From Ophelia neglecta (Eukaryota): a stretch of 64,000 nt of DNA. The notes beneath the pieces were generated by a model that saw only the letters and a program-made list of their open reading frames with translations, did no database searches and had not been told where the DNA came from. The DNA lies in assembly GCA_965285935.1 (NCBI GenBank), contig OZ260661.1:104904001-104968000 (forward strand). Direction: 5' to 3'. The position numbers and the translations under genes are program-made. Below are positions 9,434 to 38,900 of the stretch, in pieces; position 1 is the stretch's first letter, and the number at the start of each line of letters is the position of its first letter.

Positions 9434-10924
9434 CCGTACCACCATCCTAGTTATACTCATCATTGAAACCCTTGGCATAGTTAAAAAGTTATACTTTAAA
9501 TTTGAAAAATGTTTTATCTAGGGTATGACTCATTGGCAATATCGTCATAACCCGCCCATTTGTTTGGGAGATCTGATCCAGATAAAAAAGATGCTGGATA
9601 AGGCCCAGAAGTAGGCTAAAGTACAGTCACCCCAGAAGGCATTTTTGTGGGCTCCTGGTGACGATTCATTTGAAGCACAGTGAGCCCAAAACGTACAACT
9701 TTAACACCTGCATGGGGATGATTCATTTGTTAAGTTGCAATCGACTCTCTAGATTCGCAGATCTGCACTGGAAACAAAGTGTAAATACAAATGACATTGG
9801 TCCGCAACTCTACAGTAAAGTAGACCAAAGTACACTTGACCAAAGGCACATGCAAGGCGTAATATGTTGAAATCTAGCCAGTAGTTTTGGTGAACTACTA
9901 CTGAAATAAAGTATGGATGAAGAATAAATAATTCTATACAATTTTGCCCCAATAGTGGGCCAAAGTACAGTAAGCCCAAAGGCATTTCTTTGACCTTAAG
10001 TCTTCAATCATATGTTATCTGGTTTCAATCCTCCTAATAGTCTTGGATATCTACTTAAGAATAAAAGTTTAACGGCTAAAAATTAGGTCCACAAATGTGT
10101 CATGACTGCAGGTTGTCAGGAATAGGCCTAGACCTATATTGTACCTTTACAAATGAATCAAACAACTTAACTTCAGGAATTTGGGCAGGAATATAAAACA
10201 AAGTTTGCTAAGCTAAATATTTACATGATATATAGCACTTGGCCTTTAGTTTAGTTCAGAATTGTTTAGGGATTACCAAATTTTGTAGTAAATCAAACAA
10301 AATAGGGATAGTTTTTTTTTTTACTTTGGCAATAAGGGTGATAAAATGGAGCTCATATCTTAGAAACTGCACTGTTTATGATCAAGATTACAATTAAGAT
10401 CTAACCCTGTATAGTTTGATTGCCTCTTGTCGTTTGAAAGAAGAGATAAATCAAATCTTCGTATGAAATCGATGTATCCAATCAATGACTGTGGTCTGGT
10501 TGGGATTCTTATTCAAGTTCACATGCCAATGATATAATATCTTCACTCCTAAGTGCAGCGCCATACCTGAATATGGATTGTGAGGGCATGCACTTGAGTG
10601 ATACTTCCTCGTGAATGTCTCACTCTGGTACCCACCTGGGGTCTTAATAAGGCGTGACTGGATCGGAAAGTTTTTCATCCTGTTTTGTCAATCACCGGGA
10701 AGACAATTCTCATATGTTGCCGTCAGCCATGGGTAGAAAGAAGGTGACAATTTACCTGGGTTCTCTTTCTTTATAGCTGGAGGATTTTGCCATCAAAATT
10801 CGTAAAACTCCATTGGCCAACTTTTTCCAGTGGGGGGGGGGGGGGGGGGGTGATTAGGAAGTCGAATTGACCGATGGTACTTCTTTAAGGAAAATAAAGG
10901 GAAATCATGTCGTTTTTGTTTCAG

Positions 10925-11641
10925 GTTTTATTGATGTCTGGAAAGAAGGTGTTCTGTTCTGGATATGATTTAAAAGAGTATGCTGAGAGTGATAGGGGTT
11001 CGCCTCTGAGTCAGAAGATGCCATGGGATCCATACGAAGATTTCAAATTTATGTCTAGATGTAATAAAGCATGGATGTCACTCTGGAGGAGTGATAAGCC
11101 TGTGATTTGCAAAATTAAAGGGGTAGCTATTGGTGGTGGAAGTGATATGGCCCTTTGTTCAGACGTCATTTTTGCCGACGAGGAAGCAAAAATAGGGTAT
11201 CCTCCATCTAGAGTTTGGGGATGTCCAACGACAGCTATGTGGTTTTATAGGGTTGGAATTGAAAGAGCGAAACGAATAATGTTTACTGGGGAAATAATGA
11301 CAGGAAAAAGAGCAGCAGAAATAGGACTTATAGGAGAAGCTGTTCCAAGTGATAAATTAGACGAGACTGTTCAAATGTTTATCCAGCGCATCATAAATGT
11401 GCCGACCAATCAACTATTCTTCCATAAGCAAGTAATTAATCAAGCTGTGGAACAAATGGGCTTATTCCAGACTCAAAGATTAGCAACATTCATCGATGGA
11501 ATGACCAGACATACACCCGAAGGTGTGGCATTCCAGAAGAGGGCCCAGGAAGTTGGATTTAAAAAGGCGGTTTTTGAACGAGATTCGGGAGTAGATGCTT
11601 CTTGGTCAAACATGAAAACGAATTCAAAGCCTACACTGTGA
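10925..11641 (+). CDS. Crotonase-family terminal exon copy A (C-terminus ...NSKPTL, no PTS1)
   Basis: Phase-0 acceptor TTTCAG|GTT joins exon 1 (DPDVK|VLLMSG). Motifs FCSGYDL, KPVICKIKGVAIGGG and IGYPPSRVWG. The frame is open to TGA at 11641. Confidence 0.88.
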   Translation, partial: VLLMSGKKVFCSGYDLKEYAESDRGSPLSQKMPWDPYEDFKFMSRCNKAWMSLWRSDKPVICKIKGVAIGGGSDMALCSDVIFADEEAKIGYPPSRVWGCPTTAMWFYRVGIERAKRIMFTGEIMTGKRAAEIGLIGEAVPSDKLDETVQMFIQRIINVPTNQLFFHKQVINQAVEQMGLFQTQRLATFIDGMTRHTPEGVAFQKRAQEVGFKKAVFERDSGVDASWSNMKTNSKPTL

Positions 11642-13191
11642 TGTATATTGATGTTGTATAAGATCATTAAAGTTAATAATGTCATGGTCATTTAAATAAT
11701 ATTGAGTCCAAACATTATTGCCGACATTTACGACTTCTATAACCATCTGTTCTGTTTCATATAAATTATAACTATAAACTTATAGACCAATGAGCATTTT
11801 TCTTTGATTTTCTTTTGTTTCGATTTCCAGCCACCCAACGTAACCCAAATTAAATCCTTTATTGCCCACATATCTTTCGCCAGACCATTGAGATAAAAAA
11901 CGAATTGATCAGCTGGTATGATATTCAAGTGCCAAATTAAATGATATTTTTCTCAAAGGTATACTAAATCCATCGATATAAATAAGCCCTTTCTAGCATG
12001 ATGCTCCCCGACGTAACCCTCTTTATGGATATTATGTGAAGAAAGTATATGTTAAAAACTTTTATCGGTGGAAATGGAACGACTTACTAGCTTCCTTTAC
12101 TGTGTTGTGAACTAACAAGCTTCATTAAAAGTGCTGTTGACTTACAGGCATACTTAACTGTGTTGTTTGATGGGTAATAGATGCGGATAACGGGGTCCAA
12201 ACGTATTAAGTTACTTTGATCTATTCCACTCCTCCTTGGGTTACGAGAAATATGTATCCTCTTCATGCTACTGCAACATCGTATGTTGCCCGAGTTCAGT
12301 CACAATGAAAGCGTGGCTAGTCCACTTTACCCTTTAACATTTCAAAGCACTGTTGCCCTCTAGAATCCATTGAATATTTACACCCCTCTTTGGTTATACA
12401 TTTATCAAGATAAACTTTCATATTCTCATATTATTGGAGAGCTTGGTCCAACAAAGACTCTCCTAGGGCACTTTACACCTTCTTCCTACAAAATGTTGTC
12501 CAACATAGACTCCCCTGAAACATATTTTGACTTTGTGTTACATTGACCACAGACTAGTTTGTTTTGTGCGGTGCCTCCGTAATTAAAGCCATTGTCTACT
12601 TATCATTGCAGGTGATACCATTATTAATCTTAAAGTTGATTTCGTTACAAGCTTATTACGGTTAGGGTACTGAGGACTCACGTTTTTGGCCTACATGAAC
12701 GATTCGTAATGATGACGGGTCGTTTTAAGTTATTCTATTTATCAATGATATATTGTTCTGTTCGCCGGGTATCCGTCTCTGTTTTTTAAAGTCATCCCAT
12801 TTAAGTATCTTTCAAAAACCCATTCCTTGGGAATAATGACCAAAAAAGCAATCGCAGTTTAATATTCTAATTCGCACATTATATGGGTTTTATTCAGGTA
12901 AAATGCAAATAGTAATAGTAATGCCACTCGTTTGCATTCGAAATAGGCAGGGAGGGAATATCTAACTTCAAAGACGTCACTTGAACCATACAAATACATC
13001 TATAACGATCAGATAACAACAATGTTGAACTTGCTTGGCTCTTACTCGATATACTCAATACATGTGAATACAATATCATGCAATATTTTGTTGCGTGGAA
13101 TGGTGCTACTGGTTGCCTGAACCAGTTATATATTAGTAGCATTAATTATTTATTCGACATGTATTCAATGTGACAAACATTGTCATTTCAG

Positions 13192-13902
13192 GTTATATTG
13201 TTGTCAGGGAAGAAAGTTTTTTGCTCTGGATATGACCTAAAAGATTATGCCGAAGCTGAAAGGGGAGGAATTGGAAACCAGAAGATGCCATGGGATCCAT
13301 ACGAAGATTTCAAATTTATGTCTAGGTGTAATAGAGCATGGATGTCACTCTGGAGGAGTGATAAGCCTGTGATTTGCAAAATTAAAGGGGTAGCTATTGG
13401 AGGAGGAAGTGATATGGCCCTTTGTTCAGATGTCATTTTTGCAGACGAGGAAGCAAGAATAGGGTATCCTCCTTCTAGAGTTTGGGGATGTCCAACGACA
13501 GCTATGTGGTTTTATAGGGTCGGAATGGAAAGAGCAAAACGAATAATGTTTACTGGGGAAATAATGACAGGAAAAAGAGCAGCAGAAATAGGACTTATAG
13601 GAGAAGCTGTTCCAAGTGATAAATTAGACGAGACTGTTCAAATGTTTATCCAGCGCATCATAAATGTGCCGACCAATCAACTATTCTTCCATAAGCAAGT
13701 AATTAATCAAGCAGTGGAACAAACGGGCTTATTCCAGACTCAAAGATTAGCAACATTCATCGATGGAATGACCAGACATACACCCGAAGGTGTGGCATTC
13801 CAGAAGAGGGCCCAGGAAGTTGGATTTAAAAAGGCGGTGTTTGAACGAGACACAGGCGTAGATGCTACTTGGTCAAATATTGATACAAAATCGAAACTAT
13901 AA
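13192..13902 (+). CDS. Crotonase-family terminal exon copy B (C-terminus ...TKSKL, peroxisomal PTS1)
   Basis: Phase-0 acceptor TTTCAG|GTT; paralogous to copy A; ends AAA TCG AAA CTA TAA. AATAAA at ~14018. Confidence 0.88.
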   Translation, partial: VILLSGKKVFCSGYDLKDYAEAERGGIGNQKMPWDPYEDFKFMSRCNRAWMSLWRSDKPVICKIKGVAIGGGSDMALCSDVIFADEEARIGYPPSRVWGCPTTAMWFYRVGMERAKRIMFTGEIMTGKRAAEIGLIGEAVPSDKLDETVQMFIQRIINVPTNQLFFHKQVINQAVEQTGLFQTQRLATFIDGMTRHTPEGVAFQKRAQEVGFKKAVFERDTGVDATWSNIDTKSKL

Positions 13903-25912: not shown

Positions 25913-27922
25913 TAAGAGGGCAGTCATGATTTACAACGTGTGTATGATGGGTAAGGGGAGGCGGCTAAAAAAGCACCACCCTCTGATTGAGGGGCCGGGA
26001 ATCAAATGACATGCAAACCCTGCCGTAAAAGCCCGTTGAATGGTCACAAATTGTTGAAAAGTGCCTCGTTATTATAGTTAATATATACCATAAAAAACGG
26101 ATTATTAAAAATTTGACGCTTCACGACTTCATACAATGTCATGTTTTGACATCAATGTTGGAAAAACCTCAGCTCTAGGCTACAGTTGGATTTGTGAAAC
26201 GATATACAGCCGTTGCTCAGTTACCCTTAGATTTGACCATGTTCAGAAAACACCAAGAGTAAATTTTGATAAATTCTACCACTCTGTCACAATTATCATG
26301 ACGGGCAGTAGTCTCCAACTATAAGCAAACAACAGTATAAGTTATGACAAACGCCTACTTACCCATAGGAATGGATTAATTGGCGTTGGCCATTTTTCTC
26401 ATTAGGGTAACAAATCTTTACTCAGATGGTGTCCCATCAGTGAAAAGTATGTGAGAGCTCTTGTGGGAAGAAAAGCAGAATTGCAAGTTGGAAGTTTATT
26501 GCAGTTTTTTCCTCAAATTCTTCGATCGTTTGCCTACTTACAAAAAATAAAATTTGACGAACAATTAAAATTCTCATCCTTATGAATATGAATTGCATAA
26601 GGATAATTTAGCCGGTCACAGATTAACATTTTGTCCTCTAATCGACAATATCCGCTGTATACAGAATTGAGGGATGCAAACCTTTCGTTATATTTTACTG
26701 GCTATATCCGCTACAAGAGACATTCATATTTCTAAAGAAGATTCAGAACGAGTCTATAATCAGCGGTGTATCTAACTTCATTTTTGCTGGTTATGAATGT
26801 AAAACAGGACGCCATAAATTTGATGATATAGGTCACTCTGATTATGTTATTTTGTCATAATATTTCCACATAAATCATTGTCTTCTAAGAACCTTGGGAT
26901 TGTATAGTACTGAAATAAAGTGATTCCTTATTATTGCAAAACTTATTATTGCAAAACAAATTAACAGCTTATTTTGTTTCGCAAGTAAATTGACCGGGAA
27001 ATATAAACCAGTTTGTCGAGTTTTTAAAGATTGAGCACAATTATTCTACGTTTACGCACTTAGGAAGGAATTAAGGATCGAGATTTTTAACCGATATGAG
27101 ACAGGACTTGTTTTTCGAGAACTGTATTTTTTGATAGAGAAAAACATTCCCCCCCCCCCTCCCCCTCCCCCAGTGATATAGGCATATATAATAACCGCAT
27201 CTAATTCCATATCGAAATAAGGTGTCCAACTAAGTCTAATTTCATGCTTGTATACGGATTTACACGAGTGACCCTAAAATTTGAGATAAACCACTCCTCT
27301 ATTCAGGTTCTCGTCGTTTTAGGAGGATCGAGTTCCATAATATCGATCTATGAATATTTGCAGAAAGATTGATATGAATATTCAGCTGGTTGCTATTGCC
27401 GTCCGTCTGTCTCGTTTCCAAGTTTTGCTATATCCGTTCTTTTAGTAGACCACCGACAACAACGCCCCAAGTTTTGATGACGAAAAGTATTGCTTACCAA
27501 CTGATTACATCCTTTTACGACACATTTATAGTACTGGCCTTATTCAAATATGCCCAAAGGTCCTTAATTTGGGAACATAGAATTATTGCCACGGGCACCT
27601 TTGGATAATTATGATATTATTAAATGACAATATTACTCATAAAGAAGAAACAGTTGCAGATGCCCCTAAAATGTTTCCTAGATTTAATGCACACGCTTCA
27701 AACAATCCTTTATAACCGGCAGGTGCTCAATTTGGCTTTCACCCACTGTTCAAAGCGACACATTAGCATCCCAAGAACGTGTTCAATGACTGTAGGCCCC
27801 TGTGCGCATGCGTCGTTGGCGGGTAACTTGAAAAGACCAGGCATAATTTTTCCAGGATTTACTACATTTACCGAATTTGGACAGTGGGTATTTTTTGTAA
27901 TATCCCTCACGAAGTTCCATAG

Positions 27923-29797
27923 ATGAGGTCGGTTCACCTTTTATTGCCACTTTTTTGTTTGTTATCGAGTGGCACGGATATTTTCACCATGCCAGGCGAT
28001 GAAACAAGGAACGAAGATGGCGGACCGGGTATTCTTGAGGCAATCTATAAAAGGCTTGACACCCTGGATTCATTGGCGGTCAGTGTACAGGCCGTTAACA
28101 AAACACTACAAAACCTGGATACCTCTGTGACCAAGCTGTCAAACCGAGTCAATGTTAACGAGCAGGCTTTGGCTAAACTACAGGATGACGCGGAAACATG
28201 TTCCCAGGACAGAGCCACTATTCGTAACGAACTGGAAAAATTGACCGAAAATTTTACGAATTTCCAGGAAGCTGAGGAGGTGTACAAGCTGAAACTCGAG
28301 GTCAATCGCCGTGCCCGAAACCTGGTCATCTATGGCCTGAAAAATAGTAAGATCACTCCCGACGTGGAACTCGCCAAGGATTTCCTAAAAAAGATCGGCT
28401 TCTCCCATAGAGAAATATCTGACTTCGGCCCTAGGTTCGTGAGCAGAGCAAGGGAGGAGAAGGACGGATCACCGAGCGCCCTCGTCATCTCACTCCGACT
28501 CAAAGACCACGTATTCAAGGTCTTCGAAAAGGCCAAGAATACCGACATGGCAGCTAAAGTGAGTAGGGATTTGCCATTTCCGATACGAGCCGCTCGTTCA
28601 CTTCTCCTGCCAAGAGTGTACGACCTGAAGAAGTTATATTCTGATGTTAAACTGGAGTTCCCAGCCAAATTGGAGGTTAACCGTGAGCTTTGGATAGACT
28701 TCTTTCCTGGATATGGCAGAGCTTCAGGAAACTTCGTTATGGACAGGATCAAGAAAATGGACTTCACAGAGATGGATGAAAAAATCGACGCCGCGTTAAA
28801 ACAAGCTGGGAAGGAACCCATTGAAAAGCAGAAGCGGTGGACGGATGGAAAGCCTGAAAGGAAAAGGCGTCGGTCAGATGGCGCAAGCGCAGACGCGGAA
28901 CCTCCTTCAAAACAGGTTGATAACATTGTATCATCTAACATTCCATGTCAAGCCCCATCCGATGAATGTCAAACAATGTCACTACACATAAATAATGTAA
29001 ATGATAGTGCAAACCTCAAAATAGCTGAACCCCAATATGGGCGTAGATGTAAATCTCCATTTGCCTCGAAACCTATAACTCATACAAGTAGTTTTGAACA
29101 TTTCAATCGTTTCTCTTGTCTTGAGCATGAAACTGTAAACCAGGATGAGTTGGGAAAAATAGAAATGAGTGTTGACCCAGATGTAAACTGCCCTAACAAA
29201 CTAAATCTGTCTGATGGTATCCAGAGTGGTAACAAAAAGCCGGTACATTCAACCCCTCATCAAAGTAGAACAAAACCGAAAATTAGCCTTGATGTTTCGG
29301 CAATTTGCCTAGATGGCAGGGATAATAGTGTAAACATACCTGTTGATGATTGTTCCGTGCGCTTAACCGGTCCACCCCCTTTCAAAGTATATGGTGAAAC
29401 GGTAGATGATTCGGTATCAGGCAATAGTACTTTTGACTCCATCTTAAATGAATCGACCAACAACACCGTGATTGAATGTCAAATGCGTTCCCCTGTACCT
29501 AAGAAGCAAAATTCTACCAATGCAAGAAATGCAGTACATCAGCGGAAAATGCTTGAAAATAAAGCAGCGAAAGGTGTTGAGAGACATTATCAAAAACCTA
29601 GCCAACGAAAAAGTGGTCGGGGAGGTAAAACGGTTTTCTCTAAGGGCAGATGTCCAGTACAAAAGCCTTTGAATCCAGCGGAATTTAGGTCGAAAGTCGG
29701 TCGAAGAGCCGAACGAAACCTAAATAGTAAACAAGTTTTGGTACCCCCTTTAGAAGTAAACACTCCAGGGGGGGAACAGCAGGGGACTAGTGAATAG
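27923..29797 (+). CDS. LINE ORF1 protein (coiled coil + RRM-like domain + long disordered tail)
   Basis: 624-aa ORF; the likely start is ACCATG at 27989. A heptad-like region precedes RARNLVIYGL and VSRDLPFPIRAARSLL, as in L1/CR1-type ORF1p. Confidence 0.85.
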   Translation: MRSVHLLLPLFCLLSSGTDIFTMPGDETRNEDGGPGILEAIYKRLDTLDSLAVSVQAVNKTLQNLDTSVTKLSNRVNVNEQALAKLQDDAETCSQDRATIRNELEKLTENFTNFQEAEEVYKLKLEVNRRARNLVIYGLKNSKITPDVELAKDFLKKIGFSHREISDFGPRFVSRAREEKDGSPSALVISLRLKDHVFKVFEKAKNTDMAAKVSRDLPFPIRAARSLLLPRVYDLKKLYSDVKLEFPAKLEVNRELWIDFFPGYGRASGNFVMDRIKKMDFTEMDEKIDAALKQAGKEPIEKQKRWTDGKPERKRRRSDGASADAEPPSKQVDNIVSSNIPCQAPSDECQTMSLHINNVNDSANLKIAEPQYGRRCKSPFASKPITHTSSFEHFNRFSCLEHETVNQDELGKIEMSVDPDVNCPNKLNLSDGIQSGNKKPVHSTPHQSRTKPKISLDVSAICLDGRDNSVNIPVDDCSVRLTGPPPFKVYGETVDDSVSGNSTFDSILNESTNNTVIECQMRSPVPKKQNSTNARNAVHQRKMLENKAAKGVERHYQKPSQRKSGRGGKTVFSKGRCPVQKPLNPAEFRSKVGRRAERNLNSKQVLVPPLEVNTPGGEQQGTSE

Positions 29798-32700
29798 CAA
29801 TCATCGAACCAGGTCGTCACACCATGTCTTACTAATCTTAATGTTACATCATGGAATGTAGGGGGTAGACAAAATCTTTTTGAAGATTCTGATTTTCTCC
29901 AGGAGATAAACAAATCACATATCGTAGCACTTCAAGAGACGTGGGGTGGTGTAAATAAGATCCAGGAATTGCCTGGCTATAAAGCGTTCATTGCTAATAG
30001 GTCAGACCTTCACCCACGTGCGACACGTCCATCGGGGGGCTTGGCTACATATGTGAGTGACGACTTGGAAAGGTGTGTAAGAGAAATCAAAACAATAAAA
30101 GATAACTTCCAATGGCTGGAATTTGATTTTGTACAAATAGGTGAAAACGGCAAGAGGGACATTTGGTTGGTATGTAATTGCTATATCCCACCTGAGAATA
30201 GCATCGGCAAAGATGCTAGGATTGACTTGTTTGAGTCGCTCCTAGGCGATATCATAGAGTTTGAAACGTTGTATGCAGTGCGCAACGTCCACTACATGAT
30301 CCTGGGGGACAATAACTGCAGAATAGGCGGCAGACCTGATTATGTTGTTGATGATTCAAATAAGCATATCCCTGACATAATTGAGTATACATCAGATATA
30401 CAATGGCCCAGGAAATGTCTCGACAAAGGTACCCCTACAGGCGCTCTGTTACAGGAATTCTGTATAACGACAGGTATGAGAGTGTTAAATGGTCGGATTG
30501 GTGGAGACGCGCAAACTGGGACATTTACTTTCTATGGCGGTACTGGCAGGTCAACAGTCGATTATGTCATAATGTTAGAGGGCGACTTGGACAAGGTGGC
30601 CGAGTTTGACATAGGTAAACATTGTCACGTGTCTGATCACTGCCCAATACATACTAGCCTAAACATCAAGGTCTTAAAGCCTGACCCCAGTGAACCACTC
30701 AGCGATTGGAAGTTGAAGTGGGATGGCGCGCTGGTTGATGATATAGTCGCATCAGTAGCCAGTAGGACCGATATGTTCATGTCCATTCTGTCTGATAACC
30801 AGCTAAGCGTAGACACCAAAGTTGACAACATAACTGAATTATTACAAAACATTTGCAAGCCTCTAATCGGCAGGCAGCATACATTTGGCCCTTTTCGTAA
30901 ACGGTCTAAACAATTTTTCTGGGAAGATGACAATTGCTTCCGTAAAAGAGCCCGTTACTTCAAGTGGCGTGACAAGTATGACACAGCAGTGATAAACAAT
31001 GATCCAGCTGCCGAAGAAATTTACACTATTTGTAGGCAGTATAGGAAAGAATTTAGATCGGCTGAGAAGAAATGCCGATATCTAAACAGACTAAAGACGA
31101 CACGTAAAATACTGTCACTGAAAGAAAAAGACTTAAGGAAGTATTGGCGTAGTGTCAACAACATAGGGAGGGTACAATCAAATGACTGTAGGGTCCCCGT
31201 CGGAGATCTGTCTGAACAATTCTCCTCAGTGAATAACCCGACGGACCGTGACTTTTTCACCAGTAGTGCTAGAACCAACGATTACCTGCACAGTGGTGTT
31301 ATCGATCAGACCCTTTATCCTGAACTCGAAAGACCGATCACACTGAGTGAGCTTGAGAAATTTCTCAAAAGTGTGAAATGTGGTAAAGCAACTGGGTGTG
31401 ACAAGCTGCCCAATGAGCTCTTCAAGTTCATTGAACCACTCAAACCAGTCATGGTCGAAGTTTTCAACCTTGTTTTGGACTCAGGTGAATTTCCGCGCTC
31501 ATGGGCTTTGGGAGAAATTAGAGCTATCCACAAAAAAGGTAGCAAATCTGACCCCAAAAATGATCGTCCCATAACCCTGCTGAGCTGCCTTAGTAAAGTA
31601 TTTACTGGTAATTTGAATAGGAGGGTTAATGACAGGGCAGAGGAAAACTTTGTTTTTCATGCAGGTCAGGCGGGCTTCAGAAAAAACCACGGTACCATGG
31701 ATAACCTGTTTGTCCTAAAGGCATTTGGTGAGAGATATAGGCTAAGAAAGAAACAAATGTTCACAGTAATGGTTGACTTTCGGAGGGCCTTTGACCAAGT
31801 AGTTCATAACAATGCTTGGGAGAAATTGGTTCGTTTGGGCATCCGTGGCAAAGTCGTGAAGATCATGATGAACATGTACACGCATGTCAAATCATATGTC
31901 CGTGATGGGTTAGGCACTACAGGTCCGCTCTTTGGAGCATATGTTGGCTTGAGACAGGGAGAGTCCCTTTCCCCAGTAATATTTGCTTTCCTCATAAACG
32001 ACATGGAAAATTTTCTCAGAAATAATCTTCATGAAAACTGTGGTGCCACATGGGATGTCCTGAACATTCTTGCTCTCCTATTCGCAGATGACTGCTGTCT
32101 AGTCTCTGATAATGCCTCTGATTTACAGGATCTCTTAGACTTACTTGGCGAATACTGTAAGACATTGGGTCTTGAGGTAAATAAAGAGAAGACTAAGGTA
32201 TTGATATTTTGCAACAAAAAAGATGATCGTGACTTTAGTTTCTACTTCAACGGACAGAAGCTTGAGGTTGTAGATGAATTCTCTTATCTGGGTCAAACTC
32301 TTACAACAAATGCGACTTGGCAGAGAGCTAAAGAAGTCAACTTGAACAAAGCTCGTAAGTCACTGTATTTACTCCAGAAAAAGATTCACTATCTGAAACT
32401 CCCATTTGCCGATGCTCTGGACCTATTTATGAAATGTGTTGTCCCTGTATTAACCTATGGGTCAGAGTTGTGGGGTGGTGAGACATGTGACGAACTAGAT
32501 AGGTTTACCTTGAGCTTTTGTGAAAAGGCAATTCAGACTTAAACAATGTACTCCCAGCGACTGGATTTACCTTGAAACGGGCATGCCTCCCCTAGAATGC
32601 ATCCGGCATTGTAGAGTAATAGGTTTTTGGGCGTCGCTCATTGACCCTCTCTCTCAGAACAAATTGGCTTCACTCACGTATAGACAAATGAGAAAATCAG

Positions 32701-33323
32701 AAACAAACCTATGGTGTAGGGGGGTTGAAAGGATCCTGACAAAACATGGTTTTGCTTGGGCTTGGAGTAGCGAAAATATCGGTAACAAACAATGGTTTAT
32801 AAATGTCTTCAAAGACATTTGTTACTTAGATGCATTTACTAAATGCTATGAAAACTGTGTTAACTCCAAAAAAGGTATATTGTACTCTGATTTAGCCTGC
32901 AATATTAACTACACCGAAGGTGCACAGTATCTGCACATGCTGACTCCAGGTCACTGTAGTGAATTGGCGAGGTTTAGACTCAGAAACGTGTACACGGCAA
33001 ATGAGACTAGCCAATGGAAAAAGAGTCTGACGTGGGATGGTGCGAACTGTGAATGTTGTGGTTGTATGGACGATGAAAAACATTTTATACTAGGCTGTAA
33101 GCAGTTCGACCACCTCCGTAACCAATATATAGACCCGTATTACACAGAGGGCTCACCCGACCAGAAGGTCGTCGAACTACTGTGTTCTACTGACATTAAT
33201 GTTCTAAATAAGCTGGTTCTTTTCCTGAAAAAAGCCATGGCCGTCAAGAGGGAAACATTCAAGTGTATTCAATCAATGTACGAAATTAAAAATCACGACA
33301 TTGCTAAGACATTTATATCATAA
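29798..33323 (+). CDS. LINE ORF2 (AP endonuclease, reverse transcriptase, C-terminal Cys/His motif), with one frameshift near 32522
   Basis: The frame is open from 29798 directly after the ORF1 stop. APE motifs SWNVGG, LQETW, YIPP, GDNN, STVDY, SDHCP; RT motifs QAGFRK, DFRRAFD, RQGESLSP, FADD, YLG. After a one-base shift it continues KRQFRLK...CECCGCMDDEKHFILGC. Confidence 0.9.
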
Positions 33324-33747
33324 GCCTATGTATTGTACACGCCTATATGTACTTAGCCGTAATGTTTACAGTGTATTTATTTTTGTTATCTTACAGCTAC
33401 GATGATTGTGACAACCCTGGTCCATGTAATGTACAGATATGATGTCTAGATTGCTTAAATATGTAACTGTTCCCGTCTTAAATATGCGACATATGCTCAC
33501 ACGTTCTGTGATCAGATCTGGTTTGTACTTTGGTTATTATTCGCCACCACCTGATGGTTGTATTGTACATAGTTTTGTTCTCTACTTGAGTGTCAAATTG
33601 AACTAGTAACCGAACCTATTTAATTTGTTTACTTAAATCCAAGCAAGTTTAACAATATAAATAATTGGTGTAATAATCTAGGTTGAAACTGTAGCTTGTC
33701 TGAGAGCCTGTTTGGAAAAAACTGAATTAGTTGGTCCAAATAAAAGC

Positions 33748-33777
33748 CATTGTCATTGTCATTGTCATTGTCATTGT
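33748..33777 (+). repeat. (CATTGT)5 microsatellite tail of the LINE
   Basis: Five exact copies just after AATAAA. Confidence 0.9.
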
Positions 33778-35391: not shown

Positions 35392-35907
35392 AACATTGCA
35401 TACATCTGCACTATAATGCTGTTCTATAAACATAGTGTACATTATAGGCTTTATACTCGCTAATATGGCCTATAATTAAGTAACTAGTGTATCCAGTTCT
35501 TTTCATTAAAAATCATCGGATAATAATAAAGCTGGGGTGGCCGAAACACCTTTATTTTGGGGCATTTATCAGAATCGGTCCTGGTTATTCTGACCAAATA
35601 ACTCAATTAAGCACGTAGCTTAATATAAGATTTCTAGTTTAGAATTAACGCACAGAGGATGCTTAATTTCTACTACAAACGACCAAGTTGTTCCCTGTTC
35701 TTGTTAAATCGCTTTCCCCATTGTCTCCTGTAAATCACCTTAATAGGCCGAGTCGGCAGTCCCTATCGAAATTGCATTTTTCGACGACAGTCTGATATAA
35801 AGCCTATGTCAACATCATATAACTGTTGGGGGCAATCATGATGACACGCATTTGCATTATCAATCCGGTACGAAAAAGCGTGTGTATACAAGTACAAGTG
35901 AGTCTTT

Positions 35908-38900
35908 ATGCCTGATACAGACTTAAGCAAATGTTCTTTAAAGATGGGCGCCACACAGCTGGAAAAACGGTTACATTGGGTCGACTACACGATATTTGCA
36001 GCTACCTTGGTTATTTCTGTAGGGATCGGATTTTTTCATGCTTTTCGTGACAAAGCCAGAACAACCGAGCAGTACTTGGTGGCTGGCAGGAAAGTCCACG
36101 TCATACCTGCCGCCATGTCACTGATGATCACCTTCCTCTCGGCCGTAACGCTTCTTGGTGACGCCGCAGAGACTTACTTCTTTGGAATTCATTATTCTCT
36201 TTACATCATCTGCGCCTTCTTTTCACTCACTATTGTCGCCACTGTTTTTGTTCCTCTGCTTCATCCGTTAGAAATCACTAGTTTACAAAAGGTAGGTGCA
36301 ACTTTATTACTATGTCCTTTATTCGTGTAGATAATATTCCTCAACCTGAAACATGAATTATTATATCTTCTCTTCAACTTAGACCTTACACATTAGCAGT
36401 TAAGCCGCACAAACCATGCATTATCACAAAATCTATTATACCGGCACATACACATGCATAGACCGCTTTCTAGATGTCTGTTTTCACTACGTTATTTAAT
36501 AGACAGCCGGCTGATACCGGTAAACGGTAGAAAAAAACCCAACTTTGACTTGGAGGTCAGTTAAGGACTACTTATCAATTTAGGGGGTCATGCAGGGCGG
36601 GGGTGGACGCGACCCCTGGCGCTAAATAGTGCACGAGGATATTGTCATCTCGCCAAATTAGCAATGGGATGGCCTTTCACATGTGTCTTTCAAGTAAGCG
36701 TCCAGACCTACTGACCTGGTCAACGCAAGTTTAGGTCCAAAGCGCCATTAAAAGAGTCCCTTGCCAATGCAGTTGAAAATAAATTGAAGAACATTTTCCA
36801 AATTTACCGAAAGCAATGGCTTTAATTATTACTTTCCAAAGATGCACGGAAACCACGATTTTTTCATCCCAAGTGCGTCGGACTATTAGCGGTTCTTTCA
36901 AAGATATACTGCCTCCATAGCGGTTATTAGCCTAATTGCCACATTTATAGTGATAATTATTGTAAGCATTATTAATAATTGAAACTAAACAAATATATTT
37001 TTCCTGAAACAGAAATCTAAAACGAATTCATATTGATTGTAAAGATAAAAGCTGACATGTCTCCATCATGGCTGACATTTTGGTTCTTCCTGGGGTGTTT
37101 TTTAGTAGACAATGGATTCTTCTAAAATGACGATTCCCCTTCAAGTTGTCAGTCACGTTACTAAGTAGGCCTACTACAAAACGTATGTATCGGGGTTGGT
37201 TAAAAGCAATGGAATAGTATATCGTCAACATTTATCATACTTGTAATTGGACATCTATTACGGCCTAGGGGAGGGTAGGGTTGGTTGGTTGACCCGATTG
37301 GTATACCAATCGGGGTGAATCGGGTCAACCAACGCAAAGCTCCAAACATATATGTTTGGAGCTTTGCGTGAACCATTATTATCAACATAGAGGCAACATT
37401 AATTATCAGTTTATCATAGATCACTGTGTATATATATACAAGGTAGCTACGCCTAAGGAAATTAAGGTAAACAAACCATTCGGAAGACTTCCTTACTATT
37501 TCAGTCGATCAAATGCTGGAATGATCTAGCACTTACATATCTATATCTGACAATCTTATGAATATTTCATGATGACAAATACAAATACGGGAGTCGATAC
37601 CCGACATACAAAGTAAAATGATACATAAAAACGGCTGTCGATGACCGGCAGACCAAGAAAAATCAGCAAATAACAGTGGAAGAAATTAGCAAATTAACAT
37701 CAGAAAAAAACCCAAGAAATAGGGTAGTTGAATACTTCTTTGTTAATGTCTCTCAAATCATTCGTCACACAAGGGACCAAATAACTTCCAGAATAAATAA
37801 TCTCAGAACATGTTACATGTATGATATTGTTGTATAGTTGCTTTTGTTTTATTCTGTCGTATCGTTTTTTATCGTTGTCATTTTCGCCAGTTTAAACCTC
37901 GGTTCCCATTTTAGCCCTTGAAAGTAATTTGTACACGTTTTATGTTATAGGCCTTTGACTTTTGTTTCTTTGTTATGTCAGCTGAGTCACTTGAAAACAG
38001 GGTAACTGACAAGGCCTTTAACATAAATTGAATAAAGTGCTTAAGGGTATACCGAACCCCTAGTTGATGTAAAGTGTTATAATTGATTTTTGTCGACGAT
38101 TACAATATATACAACAAATTTTTTATAATATATAGTGCCCACTAGGTACCAAGAGGCCTATGAGTGGAAATTTCTGAAAAAAAAATTGAAAATTATGACT
38201 TTGTAGCACTTTTTGTCAGAAAATATAGGTATTTTTTTCAAAGGTTGCCATGAACCACTGAAATTATTTACAAGTTTGACAGTTGTGCCAATGTGTTCCT
38301 AAGAGTGTAAACTAGTAAACGGTCATTCAGATTTTCCAAATTCCTCTCCTAACCAGTGATTTAAATAGGCTTTGTAACTAGTCATCTAATATAGTACTCA
38401 TTATTGGCTATTTCAACTTTGGCGATTGATAACTAATTGATGGAAAATCTTATGAAAAATCTGAATGACCGTTTACTAGATCTAACTCTTGTTGACAAGT
38501 TACCGTTTGCAGATTTTAATTCGGTTAAAGTTTGACGAGGCCAGCGTTGTTTGAAAATGATGAATAGCTTGCAATTTACACCAACTCATCTTCGCGGCTA
38601 ATCAACAAAGAAGGCGCCGGAACACTGTTTTTCTCACTTGGACGCCTGGATTTGGCTTAATGCATTCTCACCTTTTCACTAGCCACTAGGGCAGTATAGT
38701 CCCCTACAATCCCACAAACTGTCATTTTCTTTCTTCCAATCATAAGCGTAATTTTGAGAGTTTAGTCGGTGAGTTTTAGTCGGTTGAAATGTCACTCGTT
38801 CAGTTCCACGTGGTGAGCCACACGGACACATTTTAATTGGCTGTGATGCCGTCGCGTCAGCCCTTATGGGCGGAGCCAAGCAGGGGAGATTAGTGGTATC

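Follow-up and report, generated by a model that had tools for sequence, protein, structure and literature searches.

The long interspersed nuclear element (LINE) described here lies in a 64,000-nucleotide stretch of the Ophelia neglecta genome (assembly GCA_965285935.1, contig OZ260661.1, positions 104,904,001 to 104,968,000 of the forward strand). We refer to this whole stretch as the window and use its numbering throughout; all features of the element are on the + strand. We found that the two open reading frames (ORFs) of the LINE share one frame and are separated by a single stop codon, and that the sequence around this stop closely matches the type I readthrough signal of tobacco mosaic virus (TMV), including 5' adenines. 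From these features it appears very probable that ORF2 is made solely by programmed readthrough of the stop codon, as a fusion with ORF1. We favor this reading because it explains the shared frame, the missing ORF2 start, and the exact extent of nucleotide conservation (-2 to +9, with the stop codon at +1 to +3).

ORF1 ends with AGT GAA TAG (stop codon at 29795-29797), and the same frame goes on with CAA TCA TCG AAC and is free of stops for 914 codons. Reading 27923-29797 and the downstream frame confirmed the claim of an earlier note on this DNA that a single TAG separates ORF1 and ORF2 in one frame. The putative readthrough signal, AA-TAG-CAATCA (29793..29803), consists of the 5' adenines, the stop codon, and a CARYYA hexamer (R, purine; Y, pyrimidine), and matches the type I definition. 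It runs into a linker extending from the stop to the catalytic Asn20 of the endonuclease (29798..29857), with no in-frame AUG or near-cognate start in codons 1-20. The earliest in-frame ATG of ORF2 is codon 167 (in HYMILGD). It lies after Asn20, Glu47, and Tyr129, deep in the apurinic/apyrimidinic endonuclease (APE) domain and past essential motifs, as the note had stated. The note was also right that the program-made ORF track misplaced the ORF2 start: the TTG at 29969 is codon 58, downstream of Asn20 and Glu47. Across 23 families Asn20, Gly80, and Tyr129 are invariant and Glu47 is nearly so; this conservation indicates that the region ahead of the codon-167 ATG is under selection as protein. 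In none of the four copies does the ATG at 29824 share the ORF2 frame, which the note had named as a finding that would speak against readthrough; it opens just ATG TCT TAC TAA. There is also no AUG in the ORF2 frame overlapping or adjoining the ORF1 stop, as in coupling of the SART1 type.

The predicted proteins are those of an APE-type retrotransposon without long terminal repeats (non-LTR). ORF2 (29798..33323, frameshifted near 32516) encodes an APE endonuclease (Pfam PF03372), a reverse transcriptase (RT; PF00078, approximately 31526-32302), and a C-terminal CX2CX7HX4C motif, and its best matches in the PDB are L1 ORF2p and then R2. Hallmarks of LINEs are present: 5'-truncated copies, a 3' simple-repeat tail, and dispersed insertions. 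ORF1 (27989..29794) belongs, on profile and predicted fold, to the L1-like class of ORF1p, with a coiled coil, an RNA recognition motif (RRM), and a C-terminal domain (CTD), followed by a long low-complexity tail. The profile match was to human L1 ORF1p (2ykp/2yko, E 1.7e-5), and the top 11 Foldseek matches of the structure model (pLDDT 82) were all human L1 ORF1p (best E 4.3e-7). The ORF1s of these families go unrecognised by Pfam, and the ORF1 core was absent from 175 other proteins examined.

We found that the stop codon is conserved among copies and families in the host assembly (762 Mb). A search with the endonuclease gave 133 matches, and 108 stretches (100 fetched, 7 earlier loci, and the window), mostly picked because they cover the endonuclease start, were analysed and fell into 30 families. 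Four other copies of the window LINE were found, at 99.3-99.6% identity, two of them 5'-truncated. Three of the four near-identical copies that cover the junction have TAG, so the family consensus is not a sense codon, an outcome that the note had named as one that would speak against readthrough. The remaining copy (L040) has AAG; it is 5'-truncated at window position 28896, lacks the folded part of ORF1, and has further private changes. Fifteen families, including that of the window, form one side of a branch on an endonuclease tree (SH-aLRT 99; 65 rows, quick search), and these have kept the in-frame stop and a CARYYA-type context even where their endonucleases share as little as 33% of amino acids. 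Of the clade copies covering the junction, 38/40 have kept the stop; the other two have a sense codon (AAG in L040 and TCG in L017). Twelve of the 15 families likewise grouped on an RT tree (SH-aLRT 97). RT-tree rows for F21, and perhaps for other decayed copies, may derive from neighbouring elements, and the endonuclease tree was made for that reason; it has long branches for F02 and L419, from broken frames.

Conservation at the junction is sharply bounded. The context is AA-UAR-CARYYA over the 14 families tallied by column, with A at -2 in 13/14 and at -1 in 14/14. Pairwise identity among clade families is 0.93 at -2/-1 and 0.79 at +4..+9, versus 0.28 and 0.31 in the flanks. Exact CARYYA is present in 12/15 families (TAG CAATCA, TAG CAATTA, TAG CAACCA, TAG CAGTCA, TAA CAATTA, and TAA CAATCA); the stop is mostly UAG, with UAA in two families. 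The second codon after the stop varies (Ser in 8 families, Leu in 5, Pro in 1, Phe in 1) while +9 is A in 13/15. Elsewhere in ORF2 only 22-36% of codons for these four residues end in A, which indicates that the constraint acts on the RNA. The linker varies in length: the catalytic Asn is at codon 16, 19, 20, 21, 22, 24, or 27 past the stop across the 15 families, that is, seven linker lengths in whole-codon steps. No AUG precedes the catalytic Asn in 13/15 families. CARYYA follows 16 of 4,955 TAR triplets in the window, makes up 40 of 21,330 in-frame hexamers of these elements, and was found at none of 16 ORF2 terminal stops. A lone case is thus expected about once in 300-500 by chance, and the conservation over families is far beyond chance.

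The shared frame prevails among these LINEs. In 22 of the 30 families the ORF1 core is open to the junction, and ORF2 is in frame in 19, at +1 in three, and at -1 in none; for the 19/22 the binomial p is 4e-7 against an expectation of one third, although the families are related. An independent search based on ORF1 (102 matches, 40 new loci fetched) brought in four further in-frame families whose ORF1 is intact, as well as two whose ORF1 is broken; one of these two reads AA TAG CAG TCA.

These features agree with what is known of type I readthrough. According to excerpts of a 2026 review, the type I signal is UAG CAR YYA, is independent of structure, and is functional in mammals as well as in plants and yeast, the last two accepting any of the three stop codons (PMC13517186). 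The note's description of CARYYA after UAG as the TMV readthrough signal agrees with this definition. Two adenines at -2/-1 are reported to favor readthrough (PMC7764779). Structure prediction gave no excess of 3' RNA structure downstream of the stop in any group of families, which is what type I readthrough predicts, going by the same excerpts (PMC13517186). Pairing around the stop is lower in the CARYYA clade than in controls (0.39 vs 0.57, p 0.001).

If the signal works as in TMV, most ribosomes would stop at the UAR codon and release ORF1p, and a few percent would place a near-cognate amino acid at the stop and carry on into the endonuclease and RT. From one RNA, ORF1p would then be made in quantity and the fusion protein rarely, in the manner of gag-pol. 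Its coiled coil could let the fusion enter ORF1p trimers, and the low-complexity tail of ORF1 could act as a flexible spacer.

Several observations weigh against this reading. Three of the 15 clade families deviate from CARYYA (TAG CGGTTA, TAG CAATTT, and TAG CAATCC), and two (F06 and F24) have an in-frame AUG, a possible start, 3-4 codons ahead of the catalytic Asn. Eight of the 30 families had no copy with intact ORF1, being too decayed; F17 and F21 among them were resolved by the ORF1-based search. The families are related, so the family counts are not independent events. CARYYA was found in none of 52 clusters of related sequences from outside this genome. The conservation of stop plus CARYYA, which the note suggested as a check, is thus seen across copies and 15 families here and in none of the outside clusters, and the signal is documented in one genome only. 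Lastly, for mammalian L1, initiation without an AUG is regarded as likely (PMC5009743, PMC5972666).

Our results might also indicate AUG-independent termination-reinitiation, in which ribosomes would restart at a non-AUG codon by the ORF1 stop and make free ORF2p, and the motif would be a restart signal resembling that of TMV. The mammalian precedent fits this alternative, as do the AUGs ahead of the catalytic Asn in F06, F24, and F26 and the three families with ORF2 at +1. However, reinitiation needs no shared frame, yet 19/22 families are in frame and linker lengths are in whole codons. Furthermore, the window family has no near-cognate start ahead of Asn20, and the conserved stretch is exactly the known readthrough window, a motif that reinitiation does not predict. 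We consider this explanation improbable.

Still less likely, in our judgment, is removal of the stop by RNA processing, with the TAG used as a 3' splice acceptor or edited from A to I to give a Trp codon. UAG is a favoured ADAR triplet. Among related clusters from outside this genome that have an in-frame stop and no AUG, the stop is TAG in 19/19 and TAG-G in 16/19, which fits a YAG|G acceptor. In addition, the 13 families of this genome without CARYYA have a slightly better long-range duplex at the stop (-25.3 kcal/mol, against -22.0 in controls; p 0.007, with no correction for GC content). The CARYYA clade, with its less paired stop, has no better duplex than controls. There is no pyrimidine tract (mean 0.41-0.49 in all groups), and no copies spliced at the stop were noticed among those inspected. 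Variants with other in-frame stops (TAA in F05, F13, F11, F12, F29, and L433; TGA in L414 and L429) keep the property of being a stop and not the AG. The idea that this element has a single ORF interrupted by a nonsense mutation that arose by chance, or that the host reads UAG as sense, has next to no likelihood: the two sense-codon copies and one F25 copy in which a deletion fuses the two frames would suit it, but the stop is common to 15 divergent families, the AAG copy is truncated and otherwise altered, and the 18,459 codons of 16 full-length ORF2s contain no internal TAG or TAA and end in TAA, TGA, or TAG.

Readthrough may extend beyond the CARYYA clade. Thirteen other families of this genome have an in-frame stop without CARYYA, with TAG-G in 8/13 and G at +4 in 9/13. 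Outside this genome we collected 148 loci, of which 77 span the start of the endonuclease and 70 were scorable; these make up the 52 clusters. An in-frame stop without an AUG is found in 19, another 9 are in frame with a linker AUG, 18 have their own AUG, 1 is in another frame, and 5 are unresolved. For 10 of the outside loci we could confirm an in-frame ORF1 core of the L1 type. One junction (L138) reads TAG GGA GGG CAA GGA; excerpts on gammaretrovirus gag-pol give its type III signal as UAG GGA GGU CAG plus a pseudoknot (PMC13517186). Readthrough in the UAG-G relatives is less certain than in the CARYYA clade, because type III normally needs structure and none was found in general: the local 3' structure excess in UAG-G families was not significant (z -0.40, p 0.07; pseudoknots are outside the model). 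The CARYYA signal appears to have been derived within this genome's clade from the wider in-frame UAG-G junction. In the three families with ORF2 at +1 (F15, L066; F22, L112; F25, L081), no AUG precedes the catalytic Asn and ORF1 ends with GGA TAA, GCC TAG, or ACC TAG, F22 reading TAG CAA TGA; these stops are candidate +1 shifty stops.

Other junctions were seen among more distant sequences. A distant LINE lineage in contigs of metagenome-assembled genomes (MAGs; L249, L252-L255, L258, and L260) keeps ORF1 (600-740 open codons) and ORF2 in the same frame on either side of TAG-G, and has long linkers that contain AUGs and GGC-N6-GCC at +10 in 7/7, a small hairpin whose outer pair varies. At four loci (L165, L175, L196, and L204) the junction is an in-frame TGA-CT (type II-like); three of them have 460-496 codons open upstream of it, and the linkers of all four contain AUGs. 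Many contigs filed as bacterial MAGs (among L214-L285) encode a eukaryotic-type LINE ORF2 and are probably host DNA contamination. No long fused relatives were found at E 1e-20, which is weak evidence, and no relative was found in viral contigs; a motif scan gave 120 loci, none with the endonuclease.

The RT tree sets these elements apart from two proteins judged RTE-like by eye. The clade may be RTEX- or Proto2-like (RTE group); with these it shares a CCHC-type motif at the C terminus of its APE-RT ORF2, along with a long ORF1 and a microsatellite tail. Our trees contained no named references of either. The RTEX label was absent from a gastropod supplement. Related sequences were also seen in contigs of probable marine-animal origin, and the available passages of a bivalve survey are silent on the ORF1-ORF2 junction (PMC10294476).

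The window copy is a young, full-length insertion of about 6 kb (27791..33777); its copies align from 27798-27802 to 33775-33777. A clear target-site duplication was not seen. Contigs joining 27790 to 33775, that is, an empty allele, were found in 2/3 DNA runs; the runs are DNA-like contigs of one sample, possibly the assembly's own source, and hence not independent. Owing to changes found in it alone, among them a one-base frameshift near 32516, this copy cannot make the full fusion. ORF2 is open for 1,174 codons in two near-identical copies, giving a predicted fusion of approximately 1,777-1,799 amino acids, so the fusion of about 1,800 amino acids proposed in the note would apply to the family and not to the window copy. 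The element ends with AATAAA and a (CATTGT)5 tail (33739..33777). Near its 5' end is the palindrome GCGCATGC (27804..27811), a candidate internal promoter site that occurs once in the whole window, in 10/20 families checked, and where the 5' ends of F01, F05, and F09 align. Three further families without GCGCATGC have TCACGTGAC at their 5' ends. The two sequences resemble NRF1/Ewg and E-box sites and are candidate internal promoters.

The ORF1 frame is open from 27923 to 29797, with 624 codons from the first ATG and 602 from the main ATG at 27989. The first ATG, in weak context, opens a 22-codon hydrophobic leader (27923..27988). A leader of 22-24 codons with a weak-context in-frame ATG is present in 5/5 CARYYA-clade families with an intact 5' end (window, L049, L052, L056, and L060) and, apart from one F11 copy, missing in most other families. 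It is hydrophobic and signal-peptide-like (mean Kyte-Doolittle 1.65-2.6), and leaky scanning could give a membrane-targeted ORF1p isoform.

Two near-identical exons elsewhere in the window (10898-11641 and 13174-13902) look by eye like enoyl-CoA hydratase/isomerase, suggesting tandem duplication or alternative exons. An exon resembling by eye an SLC5 sodium-solute symporter (35902-36330) lies shortly 3' of the LINE.

Parallels for a readthrough fusion exist in other systems. As in TMV, the stop here is mostly UAG, is followed by CARYYA, and has no detected stimulatory 3' structure; the difference is that this putative signal sits in an animal non-LTR retrotransposon. For animal viruses the excerpts of the 2026 review list only types II and III, with type I listed for plant viruses only (PMC13517186). 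Gammaretrovirus gag-pol likewise fuses a structural protein and a polymerase at a set ratio, with a stop of the UAG-G kind seen in the wider relatives, whereas protease and LTRs are absent here and the UAG-G families have no general 3' structure. Readthrough is also known from SIRE1 and other SIRE-type copia elements.

Studied LINEs make ORF2p by reinitiation, UAAUG coupling, or 2A peptides, according to parts of two sources (PMC5972666, PMC3708506). Human L1 and silkworm SART1 are, like this element, bicistronic APE-type LINEs, and the predicted ORF1p fold here is like that of human L1; they differ in making free ORF2p and in having an ORF2 AUG, which is missing ahead of the catalytic Asn in most clade families here. 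The note's generalization that LINEs use reinitiation or coupling holds for L1 and SART1 but overlooks Paramecium non-LTR Group 3 (Guerin et al. 2017), for which readthrough was already proposed from 12 consensus sequences with an in-frame stop (PMC5405496, in part). In Group 3, too, a lone in-frame stop separates ORF1 from an ORF2 of the same frame, and its sister groups are +1 shifted, like three families here. It differs, in those passages, in being a ciliate-specific clade with a zinc-finger ORF1, whereas the elements here have an L1-type ORF1 and a defined, conserved signal. A readthrough signal or test was not found in the Group 3 passages and Table S3 rows (PMC5405496). Our search of full-text literature, as distinct from subscription papers and Repbase, gave the Paramecium case as the sole proposal of this kind, and no type I signal in any animal LINE. 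The proposal of readthrough in a LINE is thus already known from Paramecium; what appears new is a defined type I signal conserved in an animal LINE clade.

How ORF2 is translated from a bicistronic LINE RNA is unsettled. L1 and SART1 give free ORF2p, and this clade may offer a third route, directly testable because the signal is short (11 bases), defined, and mutable. If readthrough occurs, a type I signal would be at work in an animal mobile element, and the LINE would have a retrovirus-like fixed ORF1:RT ratio, with the RT tethered to its RNA chaperone; ORF2 starts would also be expected to be mis-annotated in many invertebrate LINE libraries. We think it somewhat favored that readthrough is a widespread, overlooked route to ORF2 in marine-animal LINEs. 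An ancestral in-frame UAG-G junction would span several LINE lineages, with lineages changing from one viral-type recoding signal to another (type I AA-UAR-CARYYA here, UGA-CU at four loci outside this genome, and, in three families, +1 shifty stops). Such marine LINEs would then run on a Gag-Pol-like ORF1-ORF2 fusion, not on free ORF2p.

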